NCBI RefSeq assembly: GCF_055900595.2
Contig: NZ_CM148325.1
DNA length: 64,000 bases
Strand: one strand, 5' to 3'
The notes under the pieces are model-generated. The model searched no databases. It was not told the DNA's origin and worked only from the letters and a program-made list of their open reading frames with translations. Below, in pieces: positions 3,003-34,317 of this stretch (within the stretch, counting starts at the first letter, position 1; every line of letters starts with the position of its first letter). The translations under genes and the position numbers were made by a program.

Positions 3003-3803
3003 TTACGATAAATAGAGTTTACGCAGATAATGCGGCACCGCGTCGTCGGCATTAGTACCAATCACTTCCAGCTCCGGATGCAGATCTTTCAGACGCTGGT
3101 GCGCACTGCCCATAATGCAGCCTTTACCTGCCATCGACAGCATTTCGGCGTCGTTCATCCCGTCACCAAAGGCAATACAATCTTTCAGACTGTAGCCCAG
3201 TTTCTTCGCTACCGCTTCCAGGGCATGGCCTTTTGAAACGCCACCCGCCATCACTTCCAGACAAGTTAGGGTAGAGAAGCTGACGTTGACGCGATCGCCC
3301 CAACGAGCGTTGATTGCCTGCTCCAGCGGCAGCAGTTGCTCATGGGAATCGCAGGTGAAGAACACTTTGCTGACGCCTTCCGGCTCCAGTAATCCTGGCT
3401 CATACAGCGCATATTTGAACACCGCTTCTTTAAAAAAGCGCATCTCTTCCGGGCGGTGGCGATTCATAAACCATTCGTCGTCGCGATAAACGTTAGTAAT
3501 GATGTCCGGGTTGTCGTTGACCACGCCAAACAGATCGCTGGCAATGTCGCGATCCAGGTTATGAGCAAAAATCAGATTGCCATCCAGATCGTGAACACGC
3601 GCGCCATTGGAGGTAATCATGTAAGACTTAATCTCCAGATTATCGCGAATTTGCCCTACATCAACGTGGTGGCGACCGGTCGCAAACACAAAGTTAATGC
3701 CGCGCGCGGTGAGCAGCTTCAGAGTTTCTTTGGCGTAAGGGGATAACGTATGGTCGGGAGAAAGTAACGTGCCATCTAAATCAGACGCAACAACCTGGTA
3801 CAT
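3003..3803 (-). CDS. yigL: HAD-superfamily sugar-phosphate phosphatase YigL
   Basis: Track ORF 3003..3929 trimmed to the internal ATG at 3801-3803, giving MYQVVASDLDGTLLSPDHTLSPYAKETLKLLTARGINFVFATGR (the HAD DxDGT motif), 266 aa. Immediately downstream of pldB, as in the pldB-yigL operon. Confidence 0.9.
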   Translation of the reverse strand: MYQVVASDLDGTLLSPDHTLSPYAKETLKLLTARGINFVFATGRHHVDVGQIRDNLEIKSYMITSNGARVHDLDGNLIFAHNLDRDIASDLFGVVNDNPDIITNVYRDDEWFMNRHRPEEMRFFKEAVFKYALYEPGLLEPEGVSKVFFTCDSHEQLLPLEQAINARWGDRVNVSFSTLTCLEVMAGGVSKGHALEAVAKKLGYSLKDCIAFGDGMNDAEMLSMAGKGCIMGSAHQRLKDLHPELEVIGTNADDAVPHYLRKLYLS

Positions 3804-3810
3804 AAGAAAT

Positions 3811-4833
3811 TTAAACCTCTGTAGAGCGGTTTCCGCTGGGTGAGTTATGCCTGTTGAAAAAATCAACAATGGCGTGGAGCGCGACTGAGCGCATTGCGTC
3901 CTTTTCAAAAAGGATCTCATGGTACGCACCTTTAATTACCAGCGGTCGTCCCCCTTCGACAGGATGGCCCGCAGCGGTGCGGAGTTCACAAAAACGGTCG
4001 TGCATGCGGTTATCCACCACGCGTTCCTCTTCAGCCTGCAAGAGAAGCGTTGGCGTGGCGTCATCACCCGCACCGGCTAACACCTGTTCGCCAGCCAGAA
4101 TACTTTCGCGTACCCAATGGTAGGTCGGCCCACCGACGCGAATCGTTGGGTCATCAGCATAGAAGCGTAAGTTACGTCGATATCGCTGTCTGCTGTGGGT
4201 CAGTACGTTGATAGCAAACGGCAACGCGCGCCAGCGCCCGGTGCCTATTGCATAGCCATCACGGAAACGGGGATGCGCTTCGGCCCAGTTAAGGATCTGC
4301 CGCGCCATAAATGACGGCATACGAATCACGATCCCAAACATTGGCGCAGTTAGCGCAATGGCGTCACATACACCTGGATGGCGTTGCAGAAATAACGTGG
4401 AGATCGCACCGCCCATCGAATGTGCCAGTATATAGCGCTTACGCCACGGACCGGGCTGGACCTCCTGTTGCCAGAATGCCGCCAGATCATCAACATAATC
4501 ATTAAAGCGATTAACATGCCCAAGATGCGGATCGGCTAACAGGCGACCGGAACGTCCCTGCCCGCGATGGTCGATGATTAAGACATCAAACCCCAAATGG
4601 AACAGGTCGTAGGCCAGTTCCGCATATTTTACGTAGCTCTCAATACGCCCCGGGCAGATGACTATCACCCGGTCATGGTGCTGTGCGCGAAAACGGACAA
4701 AGCGCACCGGAATGTCATCTACACCAGTAAACTCTGCTTCATCACGCTGACGCCAGAAATCAGTCAGCGGTCCCATGGTAAAAGCAGCAAACGCGTTTTC
4801 TCTTGTTTCCCAGTCTTTTTGCTGCTGAAACAT
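3811..4833 (-). CDS. pldB: Lysophospholipase L2
   Basis: 340-aa ORF (MFQQQKDWETRENAFAAFTMGPL...), alpha/beta hydrolase with a GHSMGG nucleophile elbow. Length and sequence match PldB. Confidence 0.95.
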   Translation of the reverse strand: MFQQQKDWETRENAFAAFTMGPLTDFWRQRDEAEFTGVDDIPVRFVRFRAQHHDRVIVICPGRIESYVKYAELAYDLFHLGFDVLIIDHRGQGRSGRLLADPHLGHVNRFNDYVDDLAAFWQQEVQPGPWRKRYILAHSMGGAISTLFLQRHPGVCDAIALTAPMFGIVIRMPSFMARQILNWAEAHPRFRDGYAIGTGRWRALPFAINVLTHSRQRYRRNLRFYADDPTIRVGGPTYHWVRESILAGEQVLAGAGDDATPTLLLQAEEERVVDNRMHDRFCELRTAAGHPVEGGRPLVIKGAYHEILFEKDAMRSVALHAIVDFFNRHNSPSGNRSTEV

Positions 4834-4943: not shown

Positions 4944-5564
4944 ATGACCTTAGAATGGTGGTTTGCCTACCTGCTAACATCAATCATTTTAAGCCTGTCG
5001 CCAGGCTCTGGTGCAATCAACACCATGACCACCTCGCTCAACCACGGTTATCGTGGTGCGATGGCGTCTATTGCTGGGCTTCAGACCGGACTGGCGATTC
5101 ATATTGTGCTGGTTGGTGTGGGGTTGGGTACGCTATTCTCCCGCTCAGTGATTGCGTTTGAAGTGTTGAAGTGGGCAGGAGCAGCTTATTTGATTTGGCT
5201 GGGTATCCAGCAGTGGCGTGCTGCTGGCGCAATTGATCTTAAATCGCTGGCCTCTACTCAATCGCGCCGACATTTGTTCCAACGCGCAGTGTTTGTGAAT
5301 CTCACCAATCCCAAAAGTATTGTGTTTCTGGCGGCGCTCTTTCCGCAATTCATCATGCTGCAGCAGCCGCAACTGATGCAGTATATCGTGCTCGGCGTCA
5401 CCACTATTGTGGTCGATATTATTGTGATGATCGGTTACGCCACCCTCGCCCAACGGATCGCATTATGGATAAAAGGGCCAAAACAGATGAAGGCATTGAA
5501 TAAGATTTTCGGCTCGTTGTTTATGCTGGTAGGAGCGTTGTTGGCATCGGCGAGGCATGCGTGA
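4944..5564 (+). CDS. rhtB: LysE/RhtB-family homoserine / homoserine-lactone exporter
   Basis: 206-aa membrane protein ([28 protein letters not shown]...), divergent from pldB and convergent with rhtC, as in E. coli. Confidence 0.95.
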
Positions 5565-5572
5565 AAAATAAT

Positions 5573-5602
5573 GTCGGATGCGGCGTAAACGCCTTATCCG
5601 AC
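5573..5602. repeat. REP (repetitive extragenic palindromic) element between the convergent rhtB and rhtC
   Basis: GTCGGATGCGGCGTAAACGCCTTATCCGAC, a canonical REP palindrome with the GCCGGATG/CATCCGGC-type core. Confidence 0.8.
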
Positions 5603-5625
5603 TTACTCTGATGACGCGTCTGGCA

Positions 5626-6246
5626 TCAACGCGAAATAATCAAATGAATACCAAATCCGGCAAATAACGCCCCGGCAAAACCATCAATCCACTTCGCCAG
5701 ACGTTGATAACCACGGCGCATTTGCGGCAGGGCAAACAGGCTGGCAACGACGGTAAACCACGCCAGTGTTTCGATAATAATCAACGCGAAAATGCCCCAG
5801 CGCTCAGTGGTGCCGACGTTATCGCCGACAAACAGCGAGAATACCGAACCAAAGTAGATAATCGCTTTCGGATTGGCGAGATTGGTCAGTAAGCCTTTCA
5901 GGAAACTGCGCCCGCTTTTTGCCAGTTCTACCTGTGGCGCAGGCGCAGAAACGACCTCTTTTTTCAGTGCGCTACGCAGCATCTGATAACCCATCCAGCA
6001 GAGATACAGGCCACCGCCCACCATAATCAGCGTATGCAGCCAGGCCATTTTTTCGATAATCAAATGCAGGCCAAGCAACGCGATCCCTGCCCAGACCATT
6101 ACGCCGCAGGTAATGCCCAGCACGCCCATCATCGCTTCTTTGCGCGAACGGCTAACGGCAGTCTGGGAGACAAAAAAGAAATCGGGACCGGGGCTCATAA
6201 GCGCCACGATATGAACCATGGCGACGGTGAGGAATAACATCAACAT
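5626..6246 (-). CDS. rhtC: LysE/RhtB-family threonine exporter
   Basis: 206-aa ORF (MLMLFLTVAMVHIVALMSPGPDFFFVSQTAVSRSRKEAMMG...) matching RhtC. Confidence 0.95.
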   Translation of the reverse strand: MLMLFLTVAMVHIVALMSPGPDFFFVSQTAVSRSRKEAMMGVLGITCGVMVWAGIALLGLHLIIEKMAWLHTLIMVGGGLYLCWMGYQMLRSALKKEVVSAPAPQVELAKSGRSFLKGLLTNLANPKAIIYFGSVFSLFVGDNVGTTERWGIFALIIIETLAWFTVVASLFALPQMRRGYQRLAKWIDGFAGALFAGFGIHLIISR

Positions 6247-9140: not shown

Positions 9141-9304
9141 CGGTCGTGTTCTCCGTAACGAATTATTGATTAGATGAATATTTTTCTGCGGGCTATTTTA
9201 CATACTTAACTCCTTTGCCGTTAGTTATCCCTTCCTAAAGTAGAAACCAACAAAAAAGAAGCATAAAATCAACATTTCATTAACCAATAAAGTGTAAGGA
9301 TGAT

Positions 9305-9772
9305 ATGTCTGCCGTACTGACCGCTGAACAAGCCCTGAAATTAGTGGGTGAGATGTTTGTTTATCACATGCCATTTAACCGTGCGTTAGGGATGGAACTG
9401 GAGCGTTACGAAAAAGAGTTCGCACAGCTGGCCTTTAAAAATCAGCCAATGATGGTGGGTAACTGGGCGCAAAGCATTTTGCACGGCGGGGTCATTGCGT
9501 CGGCGCTGGATGTCGCCGCAGGTCTGGTGTGCGTGGGAAGTACCTTAACCCGCCACGAAACCATCAGTGAAGATGAACTGCGCCAGCGGCTATCGCGGAT
9601 GGGGACCATTGATCTTCGCGTCGATTATCTGCGCCCAGGCAGAGGCGAGCGTTTTACTGCTACCAGTAGCCTGTTGCGGGCAGGCAATAAAGTCGCCGTC
9701 GCCCGCGTTGAATTACACAATGAAGAACAGCTTTATATTGCCAGCGCTACAGCCACCTATATGGTAGGTTGA
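9305..9772 (+). CDS. yigI: PaaI/hotdog-fold acyl-CoA thioesterase YigI
   Basis: 155-aa ORF ([36 protein letters not shown]...), in the position and with the sequence expected for YigI. Confidence 0.9.
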
Positions 9773-12938: not shown

Positions 12939-13703
12939 ATGGCGCATCGGCTACTCATTGGTAAAGGAATGATCACCTTGAATCTCAAACGGATTTTTCT
13001 CGCCCTCACCTTACTTCCCTTGTTTGCTGTTGCCGCTGATGATTGCGCACTATCAGATCCGACACTGACCGTACAGGCGTATACCGTTAATCCTCAAACA
13101 GAGCGGGTGAAAATGTACTGGCAAAAAGCCAATGGCGAAGCGTGGGAAACGTTACATGCGCTGCTGACGGATATTAATAGTCAGGGTCAGGTGCAAATGG
13201 CGATGAACGGCAGCATATATGATGAAAGCTATGCGCCGCTCGGTTTGTACATCGAAAACGGTCAGCAGAAGGTGGCGTTAAATCTCGCTTCAGGTGAAGG
13301 GAATTTCTTTATCCGTCCTGGCGGTGTGTTTTATGTCGCGGGAGATAAAGTCGGCATCGTTCGTCTGGATGCCTTTAAAACCAGTAAAGAGATTCAGTTC
13401 GCGGTGCAGTCAGGGCCAATGTTGATGGAAAACGGCGTCATTAATCCGCGTATTCATCCCAACGTCGCCTCACGCAAAATTCGTAACGGTGTTGGGATTA
13501 ATAAACAAGGGAACGCCGTGTTTTTGTTGAGCCAGCAGGTGACAAATTTTTATGATTTTGCCTGTTATGCCAAAACGAAACTGAACGTTGAGCAACTGCT
13601 TTATCTTGATGGCACGATTTCACATATGTATGTGAAAGGCGGGGCAATCCCGTGGCAACGCTATCCTTTTGTTACCATGATTTCCGTCGAGCAGAAAAGT
13701 TAA
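12939..13703 (+). CDS. yigE: Conserved exported protein YigE (DUF2233)
   Basis: 254-aa ORF with a signal-like N-terminus (…LKRIFLALTLLPLFAVAADDCA…), between corA and uvrD as in E. coli. Confidence 0.85.
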   Translation: MAHRLLIGKGMITLNLKRIFLALTLLPLFAVAADDCALSDPTLTVQAYTVNPQTERVKMYWQKANGEAWETLHALLTDINSQGQVQMAMNGSIYDESYAPLGLYIENGQQKVALNLASGEGNFFIRPGGVFYVAGDKVGIVRLDAFKTSKEIQFAVQSGPMLMENGVINPRIHPNVASRKIRNGVGINKQGNAVFLLSQQVTNFYDFACYAKTKLNVEQLLYLDGTISHMYVKGGAIPWQRYPFVTMISVEQKS

Positions 13704-13738
13704 AACAACCGTTTTGTGTCACTGAATATGGTGCAGAT

Positions 13739-13841
13739 GCCGGATGCGGCGTAAACGCCTTACCCGGCCTACATGACATTGCAATTTATTGAATCTACAT
13801 GATTTTGTAGGCCGGATAAGGTGCGCAGCACCGCATCCGGC
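13739..13841. repeat. BIME: two REP elements in inverted orientation
   Basis: GCCGGATGCGGCGTAAACGCCTTACCCGGCCTAC (13739-13773) and the inverted copy GTAGGCCGGATAAGGTGCGCAGCACCGCATCCGGC (13808-13841), between the convergent yigE and uvrD. Confidence 0.8.
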
Positions 13842-13845
13842 AACG

Positions 13846-16008
13846 TTATACCGTCTCCAGCCGGGCGTAAGCCGCCACCAGCCATTTAATACCCTGGCCC
13901 TGAAATGCCACCTGCAAACGACTATGTTCGCCGCTGCCTTCCATATTGACGATAGTCCCTTCACCAAACTTGGCGTGTCGTACGCGCTGGCCGAGTTTGT
14001 AACCGCTGTCGTTCTCAACCATCGGCGTACCCATACGCTGATGGCTGACCGGGCGGCTTACCGTAGCGCGTAAACGCACCTCTTCCACACACTCTTCCGG
14101 CAACTCGCCAATAAAACGCGACGGGCGATGGTAAACCTCTTTGCCATACAGACGCCGGGTTTCCGCGTAGGTCAGCGTCAGTTTCTGCATCGCGCGGGTT
14201 ACGCCAACGTAGGCCAGACGGCGTTCTTCTTCCAGACGCCCGCCTTCATCCAGCGACATCTGGCTTGGGAACATGCCCTCTTCCATACCGACAATAAACA
14301 CCTGCGGGAATTCCAGACCTTTCGCCGAGTGTAGCGTCATCAGCTGTACCGCATCCTGCCAGGTATCCGCCTGCCCTTCACCTGCTTCCAGTGCCGCATG
14401 GGAGAGGAACGCCTGCAGCGGCATTAAATCTTCGTCTTCTTCGTTGTAGCTGAACTGGCGCGTTGCCGTCACCAGTTCCTCTAAGTTTTCGATACGCGTC
14501 TGGCCTTTTTCGCCCTTCTCTTGCTCGTACATGGTGCGCAGGCCGGAGTCTTTAATTACCCGATCAGTCTGTACATGCAGCGGCATATCGGCAGTTTCTT
14601 GCGCTAAGGCGTCGATCAGTTCCATAAACCGTTGCAAAGCGCTGGCAGCACGTCCGGCGAGGGCTTTTTCCTGCAACAGTTCACGACATGCCTGCCAGAG
14701 TGTTAACTGGCGATCGCGCGATGTCTGACGTACCACGTCCAGCGTCCGGTCACCAATACCCCGCGTTGGCGTATTCACCACGCGCTCAAAGGCCGCGTCG
14801 TCGTTACGGTTGGCAATCAGGCGCAGATACGAGAGCGCATCTTTGATTTCCTGGCGTTCGAAGAAGCGCATCCCGCCATAAATACGGTACGGCATACTGG
14901 CTTGTAATAACGCCTCTTCCAGTACACGCGACTGGGCATTGCTACGATAGAGAATGGCGCACTCGGCGAGCGCCCCGCCGTTGTCCTGCCAGGTCTTGAT
15001 GCGGTTAACAACAAAACGCGCTTCGTCGAGTTCGTTAAAAGCGCAATAGAGGGAAATCGGCTCACCGTCCGCGCCATCGGTCCACAACTTTTTACCCAAA
15101 CGCCCGTTGTTGTTTTCAATCAAGGCGTTCGCCGCGCTCAGGATATTGCTAGTGGAGCGGTAGTTTTGCTCCAGACGGATAGTTTCGGCACCGGGGAAAT
15201 CATTGAGGAAACGCTGAATATTCTCCACCTGCGCCCCGCGCCAGCCGTAGATTGACTGGTCGTCATCGCCAACAATCATCACTTTGCCAGTATCGCCCGC
15301 CAGCAGGCGGATCCACGCGTACTGAATGTTGTTGGTATCCTGGAATTCGTCTACCAGGATATTGGTAAAACGTTCGCGGTAGTGTTGCAGGATATGCGGC
15401 TTGTTAAGCCACAGTTCGTGGGCGCGTAGCAGTAGTTCAGCGAAGTCTACCAGGCCCGCGCGGTCGCACGCTTCCTGATACGCCTGGTACACCTTCTGCC
15501 AGGTCTGCTCCACCGGATTACCGTAGCTTTGAATATGATGCGGACGCAGCCCTTCATCTTTCTGGCTGTTGATGTACCACATTGCCTGGCGCGGCGGCCA
15601 CTGCTTCTCGTCGAGGTTCATGGCTTTGATCAGACGCTTAAGCAGGCGCAGCTGGTCTTCGCTGTCGAGGATCTGGAAATCCTGCGGCAGGTTGGCGTCC
15701 ATATGGTGCGCACGCAGCAGACGGTGTGCCAGCCCGTGGAAAGTGCCGACCCATATACCGCCCTGGCTGGTACCCATCAGTTGCCCGATACGATGGCGCA
15801 TTTCCGCCGCCGCTTTGTTGGTAAATGTCACCGCCATAATCGAGTACGGCGAGCAGTTTTCCACGCTCATCAGCCAGGCGATACGATGCACCAGTACGCG
15901 CGTCTTACCACTGCCCGCGCCCGCCAGCACCAGAAGGTTGCTGCGTGGCGCGGCCACCGCTTCGCGCTGTTTGTCATTAAGGCTGTCGAGCAGGTAAGAA
16001 ACGTCCAT
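13846..16008 (-). CDS. uvrD: DNA helicase II UvrD
   Basis: Track ORF (782 aa) trimmed to the ATG at 16006-16008, giving [40 protein letters not shown]... (720 aa), a UvrD/Rep superfamily-1 helicase. Confidence 0.95.
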   Translation of the reverse strand: MDVSYLLDSLNDKQREAVAAPRSNLLVLAGAGSGKTRVLVHRIAWLMSVENCSPYSIMAVTFTNKAAAEMRHRIGQLMGTSQGGIWVGTFHGLAHRLLRAHHMDANLPQDFQILDSEDQLRLLKRLIKAMNLDEKQWPPRQAMWYINSQKDEGLRPHHIQSYGNPVEQTWQKVYQAYQEACDRAGLVDFAELLLRAHELWLNKPHILQHYRERFTNILVDEFQDTNNIQYAWIRLLAGDTGKVMIVGDDDQSIYGWRGAQVENIQRFLNDFPGAETIRLEQNYRSTSNILSAANALIENNNGRLGKKLWTDGADGEPISLYCAFNELDEARFVVNRIKTWQDNGGALAECAILYRSNAQSRVLEEALLQASMPYRIYGGMRFFERQEIKDALSYLRLIANRNDDAAFERVVNTPTRGIGDRTLDVVRQTSRDRQLTLWQACRELLQEKALAGRAASALQRFMELIDALAQETADMPLHVQTDRVIKDSGLRTMYEQEKGEKGQTRIENLEELVTATRQFSYNEEDEDLMPLQAFLSHAALEAGEGQADTWQDAVQLMTLHSAKGLEFPQVFIVGMEEGMFPSQMSLDEGGRLEEERRLAYVGVTRAMQKLTLTYAETRRLYGKEVYHRPSRFIGELPEECVEEVRLRATVSRPVSHQRMGTPMVENDSGYKLGQRVRHAKFGEGTIVNMEGSGEHSRLQVAFQGQGIKWLVAAYARLETV

Positions 16009-19560: not shown

Positions 19561-19602
19561 TGAACCGCCCCGGGTTTCCTGGAGAGTGTTTTATCTGTGA
19601 AC

Positions 19603-20493
19603 TCAGGCTGCCAGATCATCGTTTCCGATGGAAGCATAATAAGCTTTTTCTGCTTCTGCCGGAGGAGTATGGCCCAGCCTTCCCAGCAATCGTCGATTGT
19701 TATACCAGTCCACCCACGTTAGTGTGGCCAGTTCCACTTCTGCACGGTTTTTCCAGCTCTTACGGTGTATTACCTCCGCTTTGTAAAGACCATTGATGCT
19801 CTCAGCCATCGCGTTGTCATACGAGTCGCCTGTACTCCCTGTTGATGCCAGTAATCCGGCTTCTTTTAGTCGCTCCGTATAGGCCAGTGACACATACTGA
19901 GAGCCTTTATCGCTGTGATGGATGGTGCCAGACGGACGACGGGCCCACAACGCCTGCTCCAGCGCATCCAGCACGAATGTCGTTTCCATAGACGATGAGA
20001 CCCGCCACCCCACGATGTATCCGGCAAACACATCAATGATAAACGCCACATAGACGAAGCCCTGCCATGTGCTGACGTAAGTAAAATCAGCCACCCACAG
20101 CTGGTCAGGTCGTTCTGCCACGAACTGACGGTTTACGCGGTCGCCTGCGGCAACGGCTTTCCGGCTGATGGTCGTACGGACCTTTTTACCCCGGAGAACA
20201 CCGGCAAGTCCCATAACCGCCATGAGACGTGCCACTGTACATCTGGCCACCCTGATTCCTTCCCGTAACAACTGACGCCAGACTTTACGCACACCGTACA
20301 CCTGATGATTTTCATCGTATACGCGCTGTATCTCTCTCTTCAGCCAGTCGTCGTGCTGCGCACGGGCACTGCGTTTATCCGGATGATGTCGCTGTTGCTG
20401 ACAATGGTAATACGTTGACGGGGCAATATGCAGTTCGCTGCATACCGGTCCGACCCCGTACTGCTCACGCAGCTTATCCAGCAGTGGCATCAT
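19603..20493 (-). CDS. IS629-like transposase OrfB (DDE integrase/catalytic domain)
   Basis: 296-aa ORF ([33 protein letters not shown]...) with an rve-type catalytic core (…[31 protein letters not shown]…[10 protein letters not shown]…[16 protein letters not shown]). In the -1 frame relative to orfA. Confidence 0.9.
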
Positions 20494-20816
20494 TTTTTCC
20501 AGAGGCGGTCGAACTCCGCCTTCGCAAAATAAGCGGAAGCCTGGCGAAGGATATCGTTACTGCGGCGCAGTTCACGATTTTCACGTTCCAGCTCTTTCAG
20601 ACGCTGACGTTCAGCGCTGGTGAGCCCACCATCACCGCCCCCGGTATCCCGCTCATGCTGGCGAACCCAGACACGCAGAGTCTCCGGCGTACAGCCAATC
20701 TTTGGAGCAATGGAACAAATTGCCGCCCACTGTGAGTCATATTCATCCTGACTTTCCAGAACCATACGAATCGCCCGCTGACGGACTTCGGGGGAAAAAC
20801 GAGTATTTTTAGTCAT
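20490..20816 (-). CDS. IS629-like transposase OrfA (HTH and leucine-zipper protein)
   Basis: 108-aa [67 protein letters not shown]...[28 protein letters not shown]. Ends in the A-run CTCTGGAAAAAATGA, where orfB begins in the -1 frame. Confidence 0.9.
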
Positions 20817-20870
20817 CCTGTTTACCTCTTTCTCAGGGAGTTTAGTCTCCAGGATTTCCGGGGCGGTTCA

Positions 20871-20873: not shown

Positions 20874-20970
20874 TGAAAAATGAGGAATTGCTGCGAGTAT
20901 AACGCTTACACGTGGGGATTTATGTTTTGCTGGTAGTTTCGTGATCGGCACCTCGCGCCAGGATGGCTTT

Positions 20971-22449
20971 ATGCACTATCGCAATGTGGTTTGTTTGTTG
21001 TCTTGTTCGTTATTCTTATCCCCGGCATGGGGATGTCGGCTTTCCGCGCCTGAACATAATATTTACCAGAAACAGGGAAAAGGCGTGGTGTACCTGCGCC
21101 CTTATAAAGAAACAAATCTTTCTCTACCTGACGTGAATTACAAGAGTTTGCGTCGTTTACCTAATTTATTAATAGACGCAACAACACAAGATGAATGGAA
21201 TAAAGAACCACCTCTGACTGATCTAACAACTGACAACCTCTATGAGGGCGCACAAGCCTGGTATCCCCATTACTCCTGGCATAGCGATGGTCGCTATATC
21301 CTCTACGCGGGTGAAGTAGTGCAAAATCCTCACGACGCACCACCCGTCGATATCGCCTCATTCAAGGCATGGGGAGATTTTGCCGCGGATAAACACAGTC
21401 TCTATTTTGAAGGCAAGCGCACCGATAACAATGGCGGGGGAAATAGCTTAGATATCAAAACACTGCATCAGGTGGAATTCCGGCCTCCCTGGGATCCTGA
21501 CTTACTGGGGCTGATATTACGTGACGCTAATTTCTTGTATATCAATGGGCATCGCCTCGCAGATCCCGATAGTTTCCGTGTGCTGGCACAAAAGTCATGG
21601 GATCAGCGAGGAAAGTTTTCTACCGCGTTTAATCCCTGTGTGGCTATGCCATTTGGCCCCTGGGATACCCTGGCTCGTACACGGACCAAAATCCTGATCA
21701 ACGGCGAACAGCTTGATGCCGACCCGGACACCTTTTCCGTCGTGCGCTGGATGCCCGGCTCACTCTTGACCTGGCGTGATAAAAACGGGCTACAGCGTAA
21801 AGTCCTCGACAAGGAAAATCTGGCGTGGGATGAAGATTTAACAAAGCACTGTCTGGATTTTTCTCTGCTGGAAAAGAAAGTGTTCTGGCGTAAAGGGCCT
21901 GCTTGTAAACAGGAAGAATTACCGGGGCTCGATCCTGAACAGTTCCACCCCATCAGTGATGCTGTCGCCCAGTATCAGGATTCGCTTTATACCATCATCG
22001 AAACAGAGTCTGGTGACCGCAAGCTGGAGATCGTAAAACTTGATGATCCCAATCTTATTATCAACAAACGTTTCAACGCCGGGAAACGCCATGGCTATTT
22101 ACTTACGCGTGCCGAAGGGTGGCCAAACCATTCCGGTTTACACGTGTTTGAATCTGACGGACCGCTGATCTTACTGGATAACCACTCTCCGGATGAACGC
22201 GAAGCCCATCTTGATGACCATCCCTTTTTGCGCAGATGGTATGCCCGCGATAACCGCTACGTTTACAGCTTTGATGGCGCGCAGCTCTGGCGATACCGCA
22301 CTGCGGATCCGAAACAAGTTCGCTTAATCTGGAAGGAACAACATTCGGGATATGGCTACGGGGTAAATTACAAAACGGGATATCTGGACGGAAAAATTAC
22401 CGATGACGGCGAATTTATTCCTGCCCCGCGCAATGAGGCGACAAAATGA
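20971..22449 (+). CDS. Secreted protein with DKNYY-like repeats (paralogue 1); function unknown
   Basis: Track ORF 20941..22449 trimmed to the ATG at 20971, with AGGA 7 nt upstream. Hydrophobic signal-like N-terminus MHYRNVVCLLSCSLFLSPAWGC. Recurrent motifs DKHSLYFEGKR, DANFLYINGHRLADPDSF and DNRYVYSFDG. Family assignment is by motif recall, not a database search. The segment looks AT-richer than its flanks by eye. Confidence 0.75.
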   Translation: MHYRNVVCLLSCSLFLSPAWGCRLSAPEHNIYQKQGKGVVYLRPYKETNLSLPDVNYKSLRRLPNLLIDATTQDEWNKEPPLTDLTTDNLYEGAQAWYPHYSWHSDGRYILYAGEVVQNPHDAPPVDIASFKAWGDFAADKHSLYFEGKRTDNNGGGNSLDIKTLHQVEFRPPWDPDLLGLILRDANFLYINGHRLADPDSFRVLAQKSWDQRGKFSTAFNPCVAMPFGPWDTLARTRTKILINGEQLDADPDTFSVVRWMPGSLLTWRDKNGLQRKVLDKENLAWDEDLTKHCLDFSLLEKKVFWRKGPACKQEELPGLDPEQFHPISDAVAQYQDSLYTIIETESGDRKLEIVKLDDPNLIINKRFNAGKRHGYLLTRAEGWPNHSGLHVFESDGPLILLDNHSPDEREAHLDDHPFLRRWYARDNRYVYSFDGAQLWRYRTADPKQVRLIWKEQHSGYGYGVNYKTGYLDGKITDDGEFIPAPRNEATK

Positions 22450-23774
22450 AAGGTCAAATAATCACTGTTGCACTCATCCTGTTGGGGCACATATTTCTGA
22501 CGCCTGCTGTACAGGCCATAGGGTTCGACTATTACAATGATCACGGTGTTATGTCTTACGGTAAAGGTTATGGGGAGGATGAGAAAATCATTGCCCAATT
22601 TCCGAAGATGAACAGAGCCGATTTACGCCTTGTGACAAATATATCCAGGGAGCGGGAGTTGGTGGAAGGCTATATACCCACCGATGAAATAAGCATAAAA
22701 AATGAGGAATACCACTGGGTGACAGACGGCCGCGTTATTCTCTGGCGTGGCAAAATCGTTAGCAATCCACCGGGAACACCCACTGTCGATATTGCCAGCT
22801 TTCAGGCTATGGGCCGCTTCGCGGTCGATAAATATAGCCTCTATTTTGACGGACAGCGCACCGAAAGTAATAGCGGCGCGTCACGTGTTGATCTGGCGAC
22901 ACTAAAAGCTATCGAAGGTAACTCTACCACGCTGGTGGATAGTAAAAATCTCTATTTGTCCGGTCGACGTCAGGGGAGCAGCAGTAATGTTACTGTATTA
23001 GAAAAAAGATGGTGGGGTATTAATCCACGTCTTATGAGTGTAAACAGAAATTTGTATTCCAATGATCTGCTTATCCGCAGTGGGCAGAATATTTATTTAA
23101 ATGGCGTTCACCTTACGGCGAATGCAGACTCATTTGAGATAATTCGCTGGATACCTCATTCACTGCTGGTTTTTCGCGACAATAAGGGTATGCATCGTTA
23201 TCCCTTTGGGCAATTGTCTGGCAAAGCGATACCCGTAGATGATGACGTCTCTTTTGAAGTAGGGGAAAGTCGCGTTCGCTGGCGTAAACAGCTCACGTCC
23301 GACCGTCAGTGGAGCCAGTGGATAGACCTACCAGGTATTGAACCTGAACAATTTCATCTGATTACTGACAATATTGCGCAGTATAAAGATCGGCTGTATG
23401 TAACAAAATTATCGACTTTTGGTGAAGACCAGCTTGAAATAATCCCGCTGGATTTGCCAGACCTGGTCATTGATCACTCATTTAATCGCGGCAAACAGCA
23501 TGCTTACTTTATCCACCAATTACGGTCACGCAAGAGCGTGCAAATTATTCCAGTTAACGGCCCGCTAACTAAAAACGATCGCTTTGCTTATGACGATCGC
23601 AATGTTTATACATGGACCGATACAGAGGTAAGGATTACACCCTCCCCCTGCCCAGCGAAAACATACGTCAGAGAAAAGAATGTCCGTGAAATTCATAATA
23701 GCGACATTATTATTCCGGTGACGGAGGAATCGTGCCGGAACGCAGCAGCAGACGGGCAAACTTTGAAGCCCTGA
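22446..23774 (+). CDS. Secreted protein with DKNYY-like repeats (paralogue 2); function unknown
   Basis: 442-aa ORF whose ATG overlaps the stop of the upstream gene (ATGA at 22446-22449), with GAGG 8 nt upstream. Sec-type signal MKGQIITVALILLGHIFLTPAVQA. Alignable blocks shared with paralogue 1: W.SDGR.IL..G..V.NP...P.VDIASF.A.G.FA.DK.SLYF.G.RT and G..PEQFH.I.D..AQY.D.LY. Confidence 0.75.
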   Translation: MKGQIITVALILLGHIFLTPAVQAIGFDYYNDHGVMSYGKGYGEDEKIIAQFPKMNRADLRLVTNISRERELVEGYIPTDEISIKNEEYHWVTDGRVILWRGKIVSNPPGTPTVDIASFQAMGRFAVDKYSLYFDGQRTESNSGASRVDLATLKAIEGNSTTLVDSKNLYLSGRRQGSSSNVTVLEKRWWGINPRLMSVNRNLYSNDLLIRSGQNIYLNGVHLTANADSFEIIRWIPHSLLVFRDNKGMHRYPFGQLSGKAIPVDDDVSFEVGESRVRWRKQLTSDRQWSQWIDLPGIEPEQFHLITDNIAQYKDRLYVTKLSTFGEDQLEIIPLDLPDLVIDHSFNRGKQHAYFIHQLRSRKSVQIIPVNGPLTKNDRFAYDDRNVYTWTDTEVRITPSPCPAKTYVREKNVREIHNSDIIIPVTEESCRNAAADGQTLKP

Positions 23775-23821
23775 CACCATGCCGCTATACTGCCGCCATC
23801 ACCTAAAAACAGGAAACAACA

Positions 23822-24181: not shown

Positions 24182-26728
24182 TCACGAAAAATACTGCTGT
24201 AATAGCGGCGTGTCGTGATCCTGATTGGCAGGCGGCATGTTGCCGATAGATTTGGTGCGGAACGGAATCACCTGTTCACGACCATCAACCTTCACAATTT
24301 GATAGAACTGCGGCAGGTTGAAGTTGATGAAGCTTGAGCCGTAGGTGAAACGGTCGTGCGAAGACGAGTAGAAGCGACTGACGTCACGCACCAGTTCCTC
24401 TTTGCTGCCTTCGCAGTGGTGATACACCTCAACCCGGTTGCTTTCGTCGAGAATGTAGATATTAAAGCCATTCTCGTCTTGCGTTTCTTCGAAGAAGAAC
24501 TGGATGATCCCTTCGCTGGCAAAGCCGTCCACCACCGCCGGTAATTTGACGTGATTGGTTTCAACCTGCACTGACAGGCCGTGCAGTTTGTTATGCGAAA
24601 TAGCGCCATAAAACTCGATGGCATTTTCCAGTTTCTGTACCGATACATTCAGGCGTTCGAAGAATAAGCCCCAAGTTTGACCAGAAACGCGCAGCGCCTT
24701 GAAGCGCCCGGTTTCCTGGCGGGTGCTGGAAAGACGCAGTTCAATGCACTCAGAAACCAGTTGCTGCACGCGAGTACGGATTAAGCCGCGCAGATGCTGG
24801 CTGTAGCAGAAGACTTCCACGCTATCTGGCGGTGCGGCGTCCTGATGCATTTTGCCGAGAATGGTTTTCAGGGCTTCGATCATCGACTGCTCGCCGTTGA
24901 AGTGCAGCGTACGCACTTCGTTCCACGAGTTGCGGTACAGCAGGTCAACGCTACCTACCAGGCAATTTTGGTTTTCGCCAAAGCTGAAGACGTCCAGCTT
25001 ACGGAAATCAAAATGCACCACCTGATTGCGGAACGCAGCTGTCGGGTCATATTCCAGGTTAACGATAATCGCCAGATGGCGAATTTCACACGGGCTGTAG
25101 AGCGCTTTTGGCGTCGGTGCAGGCAGGCGCAGCGGGAAATGGTGCGACACATCGGCGACCATCTCCTGCAACTTAGGCAAATCGACAATGCCGTTGCCTT
25201 TAATATACAAGCGGGTGCGCGAGGTCAGCAGGCCGTTAAACCATGCCCACGCCACCAGTTTATTCAGGTAACGGTTATATTCCAGCGGCTGATGGCTGAT
25301 GATCGACTCAATATTTGGCGCGCGGTTATACAGATACCAACCTGAACGGTTAGCCCGGCCCGGCGGCACATAAATAAAGGTCAGATTCGGTTCCGAGAGA
25401 TCGGGCGAAATCTGCGGGTTTACCAGCGTCACTTTACCTGGCAATGCTTCAAACGCGGCGTACAGTTTACGCGTCAGAACACCGATATCCTGTGGGCTGG
25501 CGGAGACGCTAAGGTTATTGCGACGCGCAAAGCGGATCAGATTACGGTAGCTCTGCATCATTGCATCGAGCAGCTCGTTGTGCGCCTCACGCACCTGATC
25601 AATCTTCCAGTTAGCGCGGTTATCGAGCATTGCAAGACGACCATCGTCCCATTCCCACTCTTTCACTAACTGGGTTAGCACTTCACGACGCCAGCCTACA
25701 CAGGCGCGTTCACGGCTGAGTTTTTCGCACACTTTTAAATAGAAGCAGCGACGCACTAAATCCAGACGGGTGAAATCTTCAATCGCCGTCAGGTATTCAG
25801 TAACACGCTCCAGCATCATGCAGTACGGATCGAGACCAAACGATACAATCTCGCCGTCGTGCAAACGCTGTTTGATATCTTTCGCCAGCAGACGTGGGTT
25901 CGGGTATTCCCAGGAATAGGCTTCCAGCAGCAGTGTTTTCAGTACCGCTTTGTATGGGGAATCGATACTCTTGTAGAGCTGCCAAAGGCTGGCACCAAAG
26001 TACTCTTCAGCAGAAAGCGAGCTTAAGCCACCGAGATCCAGCCATTCATTTGGCGTCAGCACGCCCTGCGCGTAAAGCGTCATCACATAGTCATCGTAAT
26101 GCTCTTCTTCGTCACACGGCACCATATTCCACAGAATACGCTTACCGGCGAGACGCACGGCGGTACGATAAAATTCGTCAAGCAGCAGTATATGCTGGGT
26201 GGAGCCACAATCTTCGCCCCCCAGGCTGCCGCTTTCATTATGACGGAAGCGATTTTCATCAATCAGGAAGAAGCTAACTTCCACGCCCAGCGAGGCGGCC
26301 CAGCTTTCCAGCAGGCTGCATTTACGTTGTAGTAACTGGCGCTCTTCGCTATCAAGCCAGGATTGATGACAGACCCAGATATCCAGGTCAGAGGAACAAC
26401 TTTGCCCTACGGACGAGGTGCTGCCCATGGTGTATACACCAGTAATTGGAAGCTCACCTTTCGGCGGATCCTGTACTGACATTCCACGATACAGTTCAAG
26501 CTCGTTCAGGTAGTGGCGTTGAGTTTCATCAGGCGTGTAAAGGCAAATGCCTTTGGGAACGTTACCATCAAGGTAACCCGGCATTAGCGGATGGTGATAG
26601 TGCAACAATGTCGGCAGTAGACTGTAGACCTGTTGGAATGCAGGCCCCATAGCAGCAAGCGCGCGATCCACGCGCAATTGATTTATGGCATCCAGTCTCT
26701 GTTTCAGAGTCTCAATATAGAGGTACAA
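24182..26728 (-). CDS. cyaA: Adenylate cyclase (class I)
   Basis: 848-aa [50 protein letters not shown]..., starting at a TTG (plus 'caa' at 26726-26728), consistent with the known UUG start of E. coli cyaA. Confidence 0.95.
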
Positions 26729-26879
26729 GACGTATCGCCTGATTTGCTACCCGTCATGACTGTGATTCCGCCAACATCAACGGTAACACGCGGCATTCGG
26801 GATATTTCGTATGTCAAAGGTAACCGTTACCACTTTTCGCGCCTGGTTTTTTTAGTTTCACGACGAAAAAATGGTCTAA

Positions 26880-26899
26880 AACGTGATCAATTTAACACC
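26880..26899. promoter_or_regulatory. Candidate CRP-cAMP site in the cyaA–hemC divergent promoter region
   Basis: AACGTGATCAATTTAACACC resembles the TGTGA-N6-TCACA consensus (GTGA-N6-TAACA). cyaA is known to be CRP-repressed, but the exact site was not verified. Confidence 0.4.
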
Positions 26900-27114
26900 T
26901 TGCTGATTGACCGTAAAGAAAGATGCGCTACATACAAGTGTAGCACCGTTTATTCTCTGTAAATTCCTTATTACGACGGCGTGAAACGCCTGTCAGGATC
27001 CACTGCCAGACCTCATTTTACGGTTTGCGCAGGCGTCTACGTTTCACCACAACACTGACATCGCTCTGGCAAGGATGTTAGGATGGACCACGGATGATAA
27101 TGACGGTAACAAGC

Positions 27115-28056
27115 ATGTTAGACAATGTTTTAAGAATTGCCACACGCCAAAGCCCACTTGCACTCTGGCAGGCACACTATGTCAAAGACAAGTTAATGGC
27201 GAGCCATCCGGGTCTGGTCGTTGAACTGGTACCGATGGTGACGCGCGGCGATGTGATTCTTGATACGCCGCTGGCGAAAGTAGGCGGAAAAGGTTTATTT
27301 GTTAAAGAGCTGGAAGTCGCGCTCCTGGAGAATCGCGCCGATATCGCCGTACATTCAATGAAAGATGTGCCGGTTGAATTCCCGCAAGGTCTGGGGCTGG
27401 TCACCATTTGCGAGCGTGAAGATCCTCGCGATGCCTTTGTGTCCAATAACTATGACAGTCTGGATGCGTTACCTGCAGGCAGTATCGTCGGGACGTCCAG
27501 TTTACGTCGCCAGTGCCAACTGGCTGAACGCCGCCCGGATCTGATTATCCGCTCCCTGCGCGGCAACGTCGGCACTCGCCTGAGCAAACTGGATAACGGC
27601 GAATACGATGCCATCATTCTTGCCGTAGCCGGACTAAAACGTTTAGGTCTGGAGTCACGCATTCGCGCCGCGTTGCCACCCGAGATTTCTCTTCCGGCGG
27701 TAGGACAAGGTGCGGTCGGTATTGAATGCCGCCTTAATGATACTCGCACTCGCGAGCTGCTTGCCGCGCTGAATCACCACGAAACTGCACTGCGTGTTAC
27801 CGCAGAACGCGCCATGAATACCCGTCTCGAAGGCGGATGTCAGGTGCCAATTGGTAGCTACGCCGAGCTTATTGATGGCGAAATCTGGCTGCGTGCGCTG
27901 GTCGGCGCGCCGGACGGTTCGCAGATTATTCGCGGTGAACGCCGCGGTGCGCCGCAAGATGCCGAACAAATGGGGATTTCGCTGGCAGAAGAGCTACTGA
28001 ATAACGGCGCGCGCGAGATCCTTGCTGAAGTCTATAACGGAGACGCCCCGGCATGA
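27115..28056 (+). CDS. hemC: Porphobilinogen deaminase (hydroxymethylbilane synthase)
   Basis: Track ORF trimmed to the ATG at 27115 ([27 protein letters not shown]..., 313 aa), the first gene of hemCDXY. Confidence 0.95.
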
Positions 28057-28793
28057 GTATCCTGGTCACCCGCCCGTCTCCCGCTGGAGAAGAGTTAGTG
28101 AGCCGTCTGCGCACACTGGGGCAGGTGGCCTGGCATTTTCCGCTGATTAAGTTTTCTCCGGGTCGACAATTACCGCAACTTGCTGATCAACTGGCAGCGC
28201 TGGGGGAGAGGGATCTGTTGTTTGCCCTCTCGCAACACGCGGTTGCTTTTGCCCAATCACAGCTGCATCAGCAAGATCGTAAATGGCCCCGACTACCTGA
28301 TTATTTTGCCATTGGACGGACCACCGCACTGGCGCTACATACCGTAAGCGGACAGAAGATTCTCTACCCGCAGGATCGGGAAATCAGCGAAGTCTTGCTA
28401 CAATTACCTGAATTACAAAATATTGCGGGCAAACGTGCGTTGATATTGCGTGGCAATGGCGGTCGTGAGCTGATTGGGGATACCCTGACGGCGCGCGGTG
28501 CTGAGGTCACTTTTTGTGAATGTTATCAACGATGCGCAATCCATTACGATGGTGCAGAAGAAGCGATGCGCTGGCAATCCCGCGAGGTGACGACGGTCGT
28601 TGTTACCAGCGGTGAAATGTTGCAGCAACTCTGGTCGCTGATCCCACAATGGTATCGTGAGCACTGGTTACTACGCTGTCGACTATTGGTCGTCAGTGAG
28701 CGTTTGGCGAAACTCGCCCGGGAACTGGGCTGGCAAGACATTAAGGTCGCCGATAACGCTGACAACGATGCGCTTTTACGGGCATTACAATAA
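28053..28793 (+). CDS. hemD: Uroporphyrinogen-III synthase
   Basis: 246-aa [35 protein letters not shown]...; its start overlaps the hemC stop (ATGA). Confidence 0.95.
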
Positions 28794-28814
28794 CTCTCAT
28801 AACAGGAAGCCATA

Positions 28815-30020
28815 ATGACGGAACAAGAAAAAACCTCCGCCGTGGTTGAAGAGACCAGGGAGGCCGTGGACACCACGTCACAACCTGTCGCAACAGAAAA
28901 AAAGAGTAAGAACAATACCGCATTGATTCTCAGCGCGGTGGCTATCGCTATTGCTCTGGCGGCGGGCGTCGGTTTGTATGGCTGGGGTAAACAACAGGCC
29001 GTCAATCAGACTGCCACCAGCGATGCCCTGGCTAACCAACTTACGGCACTGCAAAAAGCCCAGGAGAGCCAAAAAGCCGAGCTGGAAGGCATTATCAAGC
29101 AACAAGCTGTACAGCTTGAGCAAGCGAATCGTCAGCAAGAAACGCTGGCAAAACAGCTGGATGAAGTCCAACAAAAGGTCGCGACTATTTCCGGCAGCGA
29201 TGCTAAAACCTGGCTGCTGGCTCAGGCTGATTTCCTGGTGAAACTCGCCGGAAGGAAGCTGTGGAGCGATCAGGACGTCACGACCGCTGCAGCGTTGCTG
29301 AAAAGTGCAGATGCCAGCCTGGCGGATATGAATGACCCGAGTCTGATTACCGTTCGTCGGGCAATTACCGATGATATCGCCAGCCTTTCTGCGGTATCGC
29401 AGGTGGATTATGACGGCATCATCCTTAAGCTGAACCAGCTTTCTAATCAGGTAGATAACCTGCGTCTGGCCGATAATGACAGCGATGGTTCACCAATGGA
29501 TTCCGACGGTGAAGAGCTTTCCAGTTCCCTCAGCGAATGGCGTATCAATCTACAAAAAAGCTGGCAGAACTTTATGGACAACTTCATTACGATTCGCCGT
29601 CGTGATGACACCGCCGTACCACTGTTAGCACCGAATCAGGATATCTATCTGCGCGAAAATATTCGCTCCCGCCTGCTGGTCGCGGCACAAGCCGTACCGC
29701 GTCATCAGGAAGAGACTTACCGCCAGGCGCTGGAGAATGTCTCCACCTGGGTACGTGCTTACTACGATACTGATGATGCCACCACCAAAGCGTTCCTCGA
29801 CGAGGTGGACCAGTTAAGTCAGCAAAATATCTCGATGGATCTCCCGGAAACCCTGCAAAGCCAGGCGATGCTGGAAAAACTGATGCAGACCCGCGTGCGT
29901 AACCTGCTGGCACAACCGGCAGCAGGGACAACGGAAGCTAAACCTGCACCTGCACCTGCACCTGCACCTGCACCTGCACCGCAAGCTGATACTCCGGCAG
30001 CCGCGCCGCAAGGAGAATAA
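28815..30020 (+). CDS. hemX: HemX (membrane-anchored, coiled-coil and PA-repeat protein; putative uroporphyrinogen-III C-methyltransferase)
   Basis: 401-aa [28 protein letters not shown]... with a transmembrane segment ([22 protein letters not shown]), a Q-rich coiled-coil and a C-terminal (PA)n tract. Confidence 0.9.
29942..29971 (+). repeat. Hexanucleotide tandem repeat (ACCTGC)x5 inside the hemX 3' end, encoding (Pro-Ala)n
   Basis: Five perfect tandem copies, ACCTGCACCTGCACCTGCACCTGCACCTGC, translating to [10 protein letters not shown]. Confidence 0.9.
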
Positions 30021-31258: not shown

Positions 31259-31858
31259 ATGTCAAAATTGCGCACGCCGTCCCGCTATCTTTTCCGCTTG
31301 CCATCGCATGAAATTACTCCTTTTCGGGCAACGCTCTTTTTAATCTTGTTGATATGTGCCGCTCTGGCTGGCGTAAGTTGGCTGATTATTTCCTTTGTGC
31401 GTACGGGCAATACATTCATCTTCTGGTTAACACTTTTTATTGGGTATCTGATAGCTGCGGCGAAGCAGGAAAAAATCAAGCTCCTCAAGAAGTACCGAAT
31501 CATGGCAGATAAACGTCGGGTACGCTCCATTTGCCAGTTCGCCCGCGAATTTGACACCTACACCGTAGATACATGGGTGATTCGTGCGGTGTGGGATACC
31601 TTGCAAGGAAACGGCTATATCGATTACCCACTGCCACTGAAAGCCGATGATATACTGGACGATGATCTGGATTTGGTGCGCGACGCAGTCGAGTTAGAAG
31701 AGCTGGTTGAAGATACCGCTGCTCGTTGCGGGCGCGATCTATGCGGAATAGAAGAGAATCCGTTTCTTCCCATCGTCACGGTAGGCTCTCTTGTAAGAGT
31801 TTTAAACGCGCAACCGATGACCCAGGAGCGACGTAACCAGTTCTTTATTCGGTCATAA
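31259..31858 (+). CDS. Hypothetical membrane-anchored protein (two predicted transmembrane helices and an acidic cytoplasmic domain); function unknown
   Basis: 199-codon ORF starting 7 nt after the hemY terminator T-tract, with its stop (TAA, 31856-31858) overlapping the 3' end of GlmZ on the opposite strand. N-terminus TLFLILLICAALAGVSWLIISFV / FIFWLTLFIGYLIAAA; C-terminal acidic stretch DDILDDDLDLVRDAVELEELVED. Ordinary codon usage by eye. No convincing Shine-Dalgarno (only AGG abutting the ATG). I do not recognise the protein. Confidence 0.5.
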   Translation: MSKLRTPSRYLFRLPSHEITPFRATLFLILLICAALAGVSWLIISFVRTGNTFIFWLTLFIGYLIAAAKQEKIKLLKKYRIMADKRRVRSICQFAREFDTYTVDTWVIRAVWDTLQGNGYIDYPLPLKADDILDDDLDLVRDAVELEELVEDTAARCGRDLCGIEENPFLPIVTVGSLVRVLNAQPMTQERRNQFFIRS

Positions 31859-32063
31859 AAAAACGCCTGCTCTTATTACGGAGCAGGCGTTAAAACAGGT
31901 CTGTATGACAACAAGTGGGTGCTTCACTCAACGTTGTGTCCATGGTGTCTGATGAGGCATAAGCGACATCTGTCAGTGGACGATAAGCACCGTAAACGGC
32001 TCTGCGTCATTCCGGAGTTTATGAGGCACTAAGGCGAACATAAGAGATGGAATGAGCATCTAC
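31857..32063 (-). ncRNA. glmZ: Small regulatory RNA GlmZ (activator of glmS translation)
   Basis: Reverse complement of 31857-32063 reads GTAGATGCTCATTCCATCTCTTATGTTCGCC...AACGCCTGCTCCGTAATAAGAGCAGGCGTTTTTTT, matching GlmZ (207 nt) including its 3' terminator hairpin and U-tract. Lies between hemY and aslA as expected. Confidence 0.9.
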
Positions 32064-34143: not shown

Positions 34144-34179
34144 GCCGGCGCTATCGCTACATCGGGCCACACTGACCTT

Positions 34180-34282
34180 GCCGGATGCGGCGTGAACGCC
34201 TTATCCGGCCTACAAGCCTTGCAAATTCAATAAATTGCAGCGTCCTGTAGGCCGGATAAGATGCGTCAGCATCGCATCCGGC
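34180..34282. repeat. BIME: two inverted REP elements between aslA and aslB
   Basis: GCCGGATGCGGCGTGAACGCCTTATCCGGCCTAC (34180-34213) and the inverted GTAGGCCGGATAAGATGCGTCAGCATCGCATCCGGC (34247-34282). Confidence 0.8.
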
Positions 34283-34317
34283 AATCAACCGCAGGCGGCC
34301 ACAAAATGGCTGCTTTT

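Follow-up and report, generated by a model that had tools for sequence, protein, structure and literature searches.

REP sequences and BIMEs have been catalogued at the junctions of convergent genes in Escherichia coli since the 1980s and 1990s. The palindromic units (PU) of the types Y, Z1, and Z2 reportedly go back to Stern et al. in 1984 and to Gilson, Bachellier, and Hofnung. The preference of REPs for the spaces between convergent genes is a published property (PMC1525189), and two classes of BIME bear on the elements considered here. BIME-1, under which the RIB/RIP elements (Boccard and Prentki 1993; Oppenheim 1993, both as cited in PMC3333891) are subsumed, has been tied to IHF through its L linker (PMC3333891). 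BIME-2 combines Y and Z2 units with short S linkers in tandem multiplicity (PMC3333891), and the binding of DNA gyrase is a property of these tandem elements (PMC2817692, PMC3333891). At the level of the transcript, REP hairpins stabilize the mRNA upstream of them and have an attenuating effect on transcription (reviewed in PMC12306157). Further, REPs situated less than 16 nt from a stop codon have been linked to ribosome stalling and reduced translation (Liang et al. 2015, as summarized in PMC12306157).

Here we describe the REP sequences in a stretch of 64,000 nt (the window), which represents the metE-ilvD region of an E. coli chromosome in reverse orientation relative to MG1655. Across 39 kb of core genes, the window is only ~96.0% identical to MG1655, which points to a divergent lineage; strain Z0117EC0005 is 99.9% identical to it, and only 11 of 5,426 E. 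coli genomes reach an identity of at least 99% around uvrD. Judged from these identities, the source is a rare, divergent lineage of E. coli, possibly cryptic clade I. The gene layout was taken from ORF calls and from the annotation of Z0117EC0005. Two DKNYY-family genes are situated between lptM and cyaY (~20970-23800; 26629-29449 of the Z0117EC0005 stretch), where MG1655 lacks both and has yzcX and short spacers instead. A 591-bp hypothetical gene between hemY and glmZ/aslA (36925-37515 in Z0117EC0005; ~31270-31860 in the window) has no counterpart in the MG1655 annotation. Direct repeats of 71 to 82% identity shared by uvrD and rep (14244-14359 with 56077-56192 and 15896-15933 with 57744-57781) belong to paralogous superfamily-1 helicase genes and are not repeat elements.

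REPs occur at 3 of the ~10 convergent junctions of the window and at none of the ~53 others (hypergeometric p ~0.003 within the window, on our own count of ~63 junctions from the gene annotation), and all five units are extragenic, lying in convergent spacers outside ORFs (Table 1). The first-pass annotation, which was made from the letters alone, had placed canonical REPs at these same three sites, all of them convergent 3'-3' junctions, with inverted pairs at 13739-13841 and 34180-34282. The ORF calls and the Z0117EC0005 annotation bear out the convergent arrangement, and both pairs are indeed tail-to-tail BIMEs; all three sites carry a REP where it had been reported, and what needs amending is the description of the rhtB/rhtC unit, which has the stem GTCGG...CCGAC and the tail TTAC and extends to 5606. 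We conclude that the three sites very probably belong to the E. coli REP/palindromic-unit family and comprise two BIME-1-like elements of ~103 bp and a decayed Y-type unit standing alone, all of them old and vertically inherited.

Several lines of evidence carry the family assignment. Failure to align with the REP consensus had been named beforehand as the outcome that should overturn it, and the units do align. Against the published 34-nt consensus (GCCGGATGCGGCGTGAACGCCTTATCCGGCCTAC; PMC12306157), the unit at 34180-34213 shows 0 mismatches and that at 13739-13772 shows 2, and consensus matches were found in 0 of 100 dinucleotide-preserving shuffles. Profiles built for nhmmer from the units of 23 independent BIME-1 loci in other genomes recover exactly five units (5572-5602, 13738-13772, 13807-13843, 34178-34213, and 34247-34284) at Y-type profile E values from 1e-14 to 7e-7, and a degenerate pattern scan agrees with this result. 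Since there are only these five profile matches and the next stands at E=0.26, the first-pass list of REPs is complete for the window. The spacers that contain REPs fold far better than their shuffled counterparts (z of -3.6 to -9.2), and the stems display compensatory changes, namely G:C, U:A, and C:G interchanging at columns 4/29 and C:G interchanging with U:A at columns 2/31, the latter in the solitary unit. The GTAG/CTAC foot is present in four of the five units, and the rhtB/rhtC unit has TTAC. Queries containing a unit match at least 40 places per record in 3,352 to 4,229 records (median of at least 39-40 per genome); with at least 40 places per record in most genomes, REP-related sequence is of high copy number. 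An Rfam scan of the window returned no matches at the REPs, only GlmZ, ALIL, the TrxA thermometer, and tRNAs, and the RefSeq annotation of MG1655 has no REP features for the matching region.

TABLE 1 Positions of the three convergent junctions and of the REP units, linkers, and terminator-like hairpin found in them
Junction	Feature	Positions	Strand	Y-profile or unit E value	Remarks
rhtB/rhtC	rhtB and rhtC, convergent	4944-5564 (rhtB); 5626-6246 (rhtC)	+ (rhtB); - (rhtC)		Spacer of 61 bp
rhtB/rhtC	Solitary degenerate Y-type unit	5573-5606	+	1e-10 (Y profile)	GTCGGATGCGGCGTAAACGCCTTATCCGACTTAC
yigE/uvrD	yigE and uvrD, convergent	12939-13703 (yigE); 13846-16008 (uvrD)	+ (yigE); - (uvrD)		Spacer of 142 bp
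yigE/uvrD	Left arm, Y-type unit	13739-13772	+	4e-13	CTAC tail toward linker
yigE/uvrD	L linker, 34 nt	13773-13806			Core ATTCAATAAATTG on - strand, 13782-13794
yigE/uvrD	Right arm, 35-nt Y-like variant X'	13807-13841	-	1e-10	GCCGGATGCGGTGCTGCGCACCTTATCCGGCCTAC (- strand)
aslA/aslB	aslA and aslB, convergent	32488-34143 (aslA); from 34318 (aslB)	+ (aslA); - (aslB)		Spacer of 174 bp
aslA/aslB	Left arm, Y-type unit	34180-34213	+	1e-14	Exact consensus match (34/34)
aslA/aslB	L linker, 33 nt	34214-34246			Core ATTCAATAAATTG on + strand, 34225-34237
aslA/aslB	Right arm, 36-nt Y-like variant X	34247-34282	-		GCCGGATGCGATGCTGACGCATCTTATCCGGCCTAC (- strand)
aslA/aslB	Terminator-like hairpin plus T-run for aslA, outside the REP family	34293-34321	+

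The solitary unit between rhtB and rhtC consists of the palindrome GTCGGATGCGGCGTAAACGCCTTATCCGAC (5573-5602) followed by TTAC in place of CTAC. At positions 2/31 of its stem, the C>T and G>A changes compensate for each other, and MG1655 has an identical unit. The right unit at yigE/uvrD has decayed at its foot in MG1655, which has TTAGGCCAAAT where the window has GTAGGCCGGAT (13807-13820); the window thus holds the better-preserved copy.

The Y and Z1 types were derived empirically by scanning one genome per species for GGCCTAC-N6-16-CAATTTRTTGAATNTRCA. This yielded 23 loci, which, apart from two contaminant-looking contigs, are from Escherichia or Pseudocitrobacter; the canonical order Z1 (GCCTGATGCGCTRCGCTTATCAGGCCTAC)-L-inverse Y is present in 17 of the 23. 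Canonical BIME-1 was seen on short contigs of Alkalicoccobacillus porphyridii (720 bp) and of a Collinsella MAG, and such occurrences on Firmicutes/Actinobacteria contigs most likely reflect contamination with Enterobacteriaceae DNA. Both 103-bp elements of the window have a plus-strand unit ending in GGCCTAC, an AT-rich linker of 33-34 nt, and a minus-strand unit starting with GTAGGCC, and each is a single pair of inverse units placed tail to tail in the order CTAC-L-GTAG. Their L linkers align with those of the 17 canonical loci and of RU-3 around a common core, ATTCAAYAAATTG.

Sorting the units of the window into Y, Z1, and Z2, as the first-pass annotation had proposed, gives three Y units and two Y-like long variants of 35-36 nt; neither pair contains the Z1 unit, and Z2 is likewise absent. 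The long variants, X and X', have the outer stem of the Y type around a longer interior and differ from each other by a compensatory A:T to G:C pair; X occupies the slot that Z1 fills in canonical BIME-1. Given that Z1 is absent and that the partners are 35-36 nt long with a Y-type outer stem, we file the pairs as BIME-1-like variants; the definitions in PMC3333891 set them apart from BIME-2. The aslA/aslB element reads X-L-inverse Y and the yigE/uvrD element Y-L-inverse X', and the orientation of the L linker relative to the Y unit is opposite between the two. This opposite orientation, together with the membership of X and X' in the same subtype, suggests that the two BIMEs are related and that one of them may have undergone either an inner inversion restricted to the linker or a swap of units.

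Matching elements are found at the matching junctions in E. whittamii, Escherichia sp. E1V33, Escherichia sp. MOD1-EC7003, and "E. coli" E69, whose identity to the window is 91-95%. Their presence at the same junctions in several Escherichia species indicates that the elements are old and have been inherited vertically. Across the 5,426 complete E. coli genomes compared, structural variation is seen at each of the three junctions. Hence, of the two kinds of hotspot that the first-pass annotation had ascribed to these sites, that for rearrangement holds up; that for IS insertion finds no counterpart in the window, where no REP contains an IS and the only IS, IS1203 (IS3 family; ~19565-20869), is located between lptM and a DKNYY-family gene. 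This IS1203 carries the ALIL frameshift pseudoknot (20419-20535), and no IS occupies its position in any of the 5,426 complete E. coli genomes.

The rearranged alleles differ from junction to junction. At rhtB/rhtC, ~650 genomes (~12%) lack a full-length match to the spacer, and in the one genome of this kind that was inspected, that of isolate SC477, an rpn-family (recombination-promoting) nuclease gene with a hairpin of its own replaces the whole REP spacer. The yigE/uvrD BIME allele is matched over at least 80% of the query in only 3,011 of the 5,426 genomes, and ~44% are without a full-length match. In G3X16-2 and 1450, taken as examples, a 903-bp gene of the SAM hydrolase/SAM-dependent halogenase family stands between yigE and uvrD. 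The only remnant of the BIME in such strains is a perfect 33-nt hairpin of REP "heads" (TGCCGGATGCGGTGTGGCGCACCGCATCCGGCA) beside the uvrD stop codon, and the breakpoints of the allele fall at the yigE stop codon and inside the right unit. Collapse of a flipped BIME accounts for this hairpin with 2 differences and collapse in the present orientation with ~5, neither figure being decisive.

The classes of allele at aslA/aslB are approximate, having been read from match classes and example genomes. The allele of the window is present in 23 genomes, and ~2,840 have a full BIME that is only 85-88% identical to it. A further ~1,450 have collapsed single hairpins, and in ~1,150 aslA is largely deleted with the right breakpoint in the left unit, so that an intact BIME is missing in about half of the genomes. 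The collapsed forms arose by deletion between direct repeats internal to the units, ATCCGGC in 2014C-3338 and GCATC in 2021CK-01784; as there is one such allele on each flank haplotype, at least two independent collapse events are implied. Similar "long palindromic REP singlets" have been ascribed by Bertels and Rainey to excision of the center of a REPIN (PMC3337134). In the deletion allele, found in about one-fifth of genomes, an internal part of aslA (…CCAGTATC) is joined to the 3' arm or the tail of the left unit across a few bases of microhomology (32596-32630 and 34180-34213 of the window). A REP-head-like sequence, GCCGGATACG, is present inside aslA at 32599-32608, just upstream of this junction.

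The orientation of the aslA/aslB element relative to its flanks provides an explanation for the 85-88% class. In MG1655 (9195-9352 of the stretch compared), CFT073, and ERL05-0623, the BIME is flipped with respect to the window. Indeed, the MG1655 element is 80.8% identical to that of the window on the same strand and 93.3% identical after reverse complementation, and the corresponding values are 80.6% and 96.1% for CFT073. The relation is reversed in E. whittamii (95.2% on the same strand and 80.8% reverse-complemented), Escherichia sp. MOD1-EC7003 (96.2% and 81.7%), and "E. coli" E69 (100% and 82.5%). Flipping the K-12-type element in silico between GCCGGATGCG and CGCATCCGGC brings the whole spacer into register with those of the window and the outgroups at every column, with the sole exception of an 8-bp deletion, accompanied by substitutions, that abuts the left end of the element in the flipped type. 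Typical E. coli is also matched more closely by a synthetic flipped query than by the native one. These alignments are most simply read as one inversion event in the ancestry of most E. coli, in which the ~100-bp element would have been turned around between perfect inverted ends of 12 bp (TTGCCGGATGCG/CGCATCCGGCAA). The unflipped orientation, shared by the window, 23 other "E. coli" genomes, and three other Escherichia species, is apparently ancestral. Candidate mechanisms for the flip include template switching within the hairpin, short-homology recombination, and excision followed by reinsertion.

Taking these comparisons together, we tentatively propose, at somewhat less than even confidence, that a BIME-1-type pair can be inverted in place through its inverted arms and can afterward be reduced to a single hairpin, the aslA/aslB element having been flipped as a unit in K-12, CFT073, and about half of sequenced E. 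coli. The opposite linker orientations at yigE/uvrD and aslA/aslB hint at a second, inner inversion. At yigE/uvrD itself, a synthetic flipped query recovered no flipped allele, the best full-length match being 89% identical and in the native orientation. No large class of flipped alleles was seen for the canonical BIME-1 elements at mtlA/mtlD and ubiA/plsB, on a query from a divergent strain with which small classes could be missed, and it follows that inversion is not a general polymorphism of such elements. We found no description of the in-place inversion of a REP doublet in the literature searched, which leaves key papers of the 1990s outside its reach.

The same polymorphism bears on whether these elements serve the host at all. 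They could be selfish, REPIN-like non-autonomous mobile DNA, mobilized by RAYT/TnpA-REP and tolerated at convergent junctions without a host function at these sites. The architecture of a doublet forming a hairpin is that of REPINs (PMC3337134, PMC2817692), two of the junctions show collapsed singlets of the kind that Bertels and Rainey explained by central excision, and the elements are dispensable, in that large fractions of E. coli genomes are without each one; this last point also argues against any strongly selected function. Against recent mobility of these copies stand their orthologous positions in several Escherichia species and the lack of a RAYT gene among the genes annotated across the window, and the conservation of the L linker with its IHF-type core across loci and genera suggests constraint. 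We therefore consider a purely selfish origin without local function the less probable account, if a serious one, and it is in any case compatible with co-option by the host.

Under the reading that we prefer, of old BIME-1-like elements in the REP/PU family, the linker is predicted to bind IHF. Its core agrees with the IHF consensus WATCAANNNNTTR at 8 of the 9 specified positions, and the exact pattern is absent from the two linkers of the window. IHF bound at the L linker would be predicted to bend the spacer between the converging transcription units. The first-pass annotation had described the elements as associated with both gyrase and IHF; with their single-copy, tail-to-tail architecture and long L linker, the second association fits and the first probably does not. 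That they might be gyrase binding or cleavage sites of the BIME-2 type is very improbable: all that speaks for it is that the literature associates BIMEs in general with gyrase (PMC2817692). Each locus consists of one pair joined by a long L linker and lacks Z2, as opposed to the tandem Y and Z2 units with S linkers that define BIME-2 (PMC3333891).

The remaining predictions concern the hairpins that the units would form in RNA. Each 3' UTR is predicted to end in a strong hairpin without a U-tract, which could block 3'-5' exonucleases and attenuate read-through into the opposing gene. X' lies 4 nt from the uvrD stop codon and the solitary unit begins 8 nt past that of rhtB, and the other four stop codons are 19-36 nt away, including that of rhtC at 19 nt; hence, at uvrD and rhtB the hairpin would be in range for stalling terminating ribosomes and thereby lowering translation. 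By analogy with the REP family, bending by IHF, protection of mRNA together with attenuation, and ribosome stalling at uvrD and rhtB are the likely roles of these elements. A scan for intrinsic terminators found none at 13400-14100 or in the rhtB/rhtC spacer, and none overlapping a REP. Although the REPs are GC-rich hairpins at gene 3' ends, the notion that they are ordinary Rho-independent terminators or chance palindromes resembling REPs can be dismissed, as it is ruled out by the consensus and profile tests (the exact 34/34 match, the at least 40 related places per record in most genomes, and the 0 matches in shuffles), along with the missing U-tracts and the negative terminator scan.

The aslA/aslB BIME may be redundant in this respect, since the junction has its own terminator-like hairpin for aslA, a separate structure that the terminator scan places at 34293-34315. 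This hairpin is intact in the window and several other strains, and its 3' arm is missing in MG1655, CFT073, E. whittamii, and Escherichia sp. MOD1-EC7003, which have GGCCGCCGATTTCT or a similar sequence. The short inverted and direct repeats that the elements bring with them may also destabilize the spacers over evolutionary time, predisposing them to inversion, to collapse into a single hairpin, and to replacements or deletions that break within a unit.

REPs and BIMEs at convergent junctions are a known kind of element, and all three loci also exist in K-12; for these reasons, the finding as first stated matters little. Only two parts go further than textbook knowledge, namely the in-place inversion and the collapse series. 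The comparison does make the annotation precise, as the pairs are of the IHF-linker type and not the gyrase type, and it singles out uvrD and rhtB as candidates for REP-dependent damping of translation. It also lets the elements be seen changing, through flips in place and through collapse via direct repeats of 5-7 bp within units, and it presents REP elements as breakpoints for the gain (rpn, SAM hydrolase) and loss (aslA) of genes. If the proposed inversion is correct, the orientation of the aslA/aslB element would serve as a lineage marker and would supply a natural example of the inversion of a spacer between short inverted repeats, whether by template switching or by short-homology recombination. 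Should it prove general, it would constitute a simple, testable, hairpin-driven rearrangement in a model organism.

With respect to the described systems, the units of the window share with the REP/PU of E. coli their form as imperfect palindromes of ~34-36 nt with a GTAG/CTAC foot, their extragenic location, and their high copy number; one is exact to the consensus, and three of the five are plain Y. They depart from that family in the longer interiors of 13807-13841 and 34247-34282, which retain the outer stem of Y (G...C at the diagnostic positions), and in the loss of the CTAC foot from the solitary unit. Compared with BIME-1, the pairs have the same single-copy, tail-to-tail layout of ~100 bp, the same ~34-nt L linker with ATTCAAYAAATTG, and the same placement at the 3' ends of transcription units. 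However, the canonical order is Z1-L-Y, whereas both pairs of the window are without Z1, and at yigE/uvrD the linker points the other way with respect to the Y unit. RU-3, a 103-bp "small mobile sequence" (Delihas 2007, PMC2759123), resembles them in its length and its Y-L-inverse-unit layout and aligns with them directly, although its second unit, as printed, is Z1; RU-3 appears to be BIME-1 under another name. The likeness to REPINs is that a REP doublet forms one long hairpin, and the collapsed aslA/aslB and uvrD alleles of other strains resemble the "long palindromic REP singlets"; REPINs, however, were defined in Pseudomonas with other sequences (Bertels and Rainey 2011, PMC3116915/PMC3337134). 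Finally, BIME-2 is built from palindromic units of a similar kind, but the window has single pairs rather than arrays, joined by L rather than S linkers and devoid of Z2.
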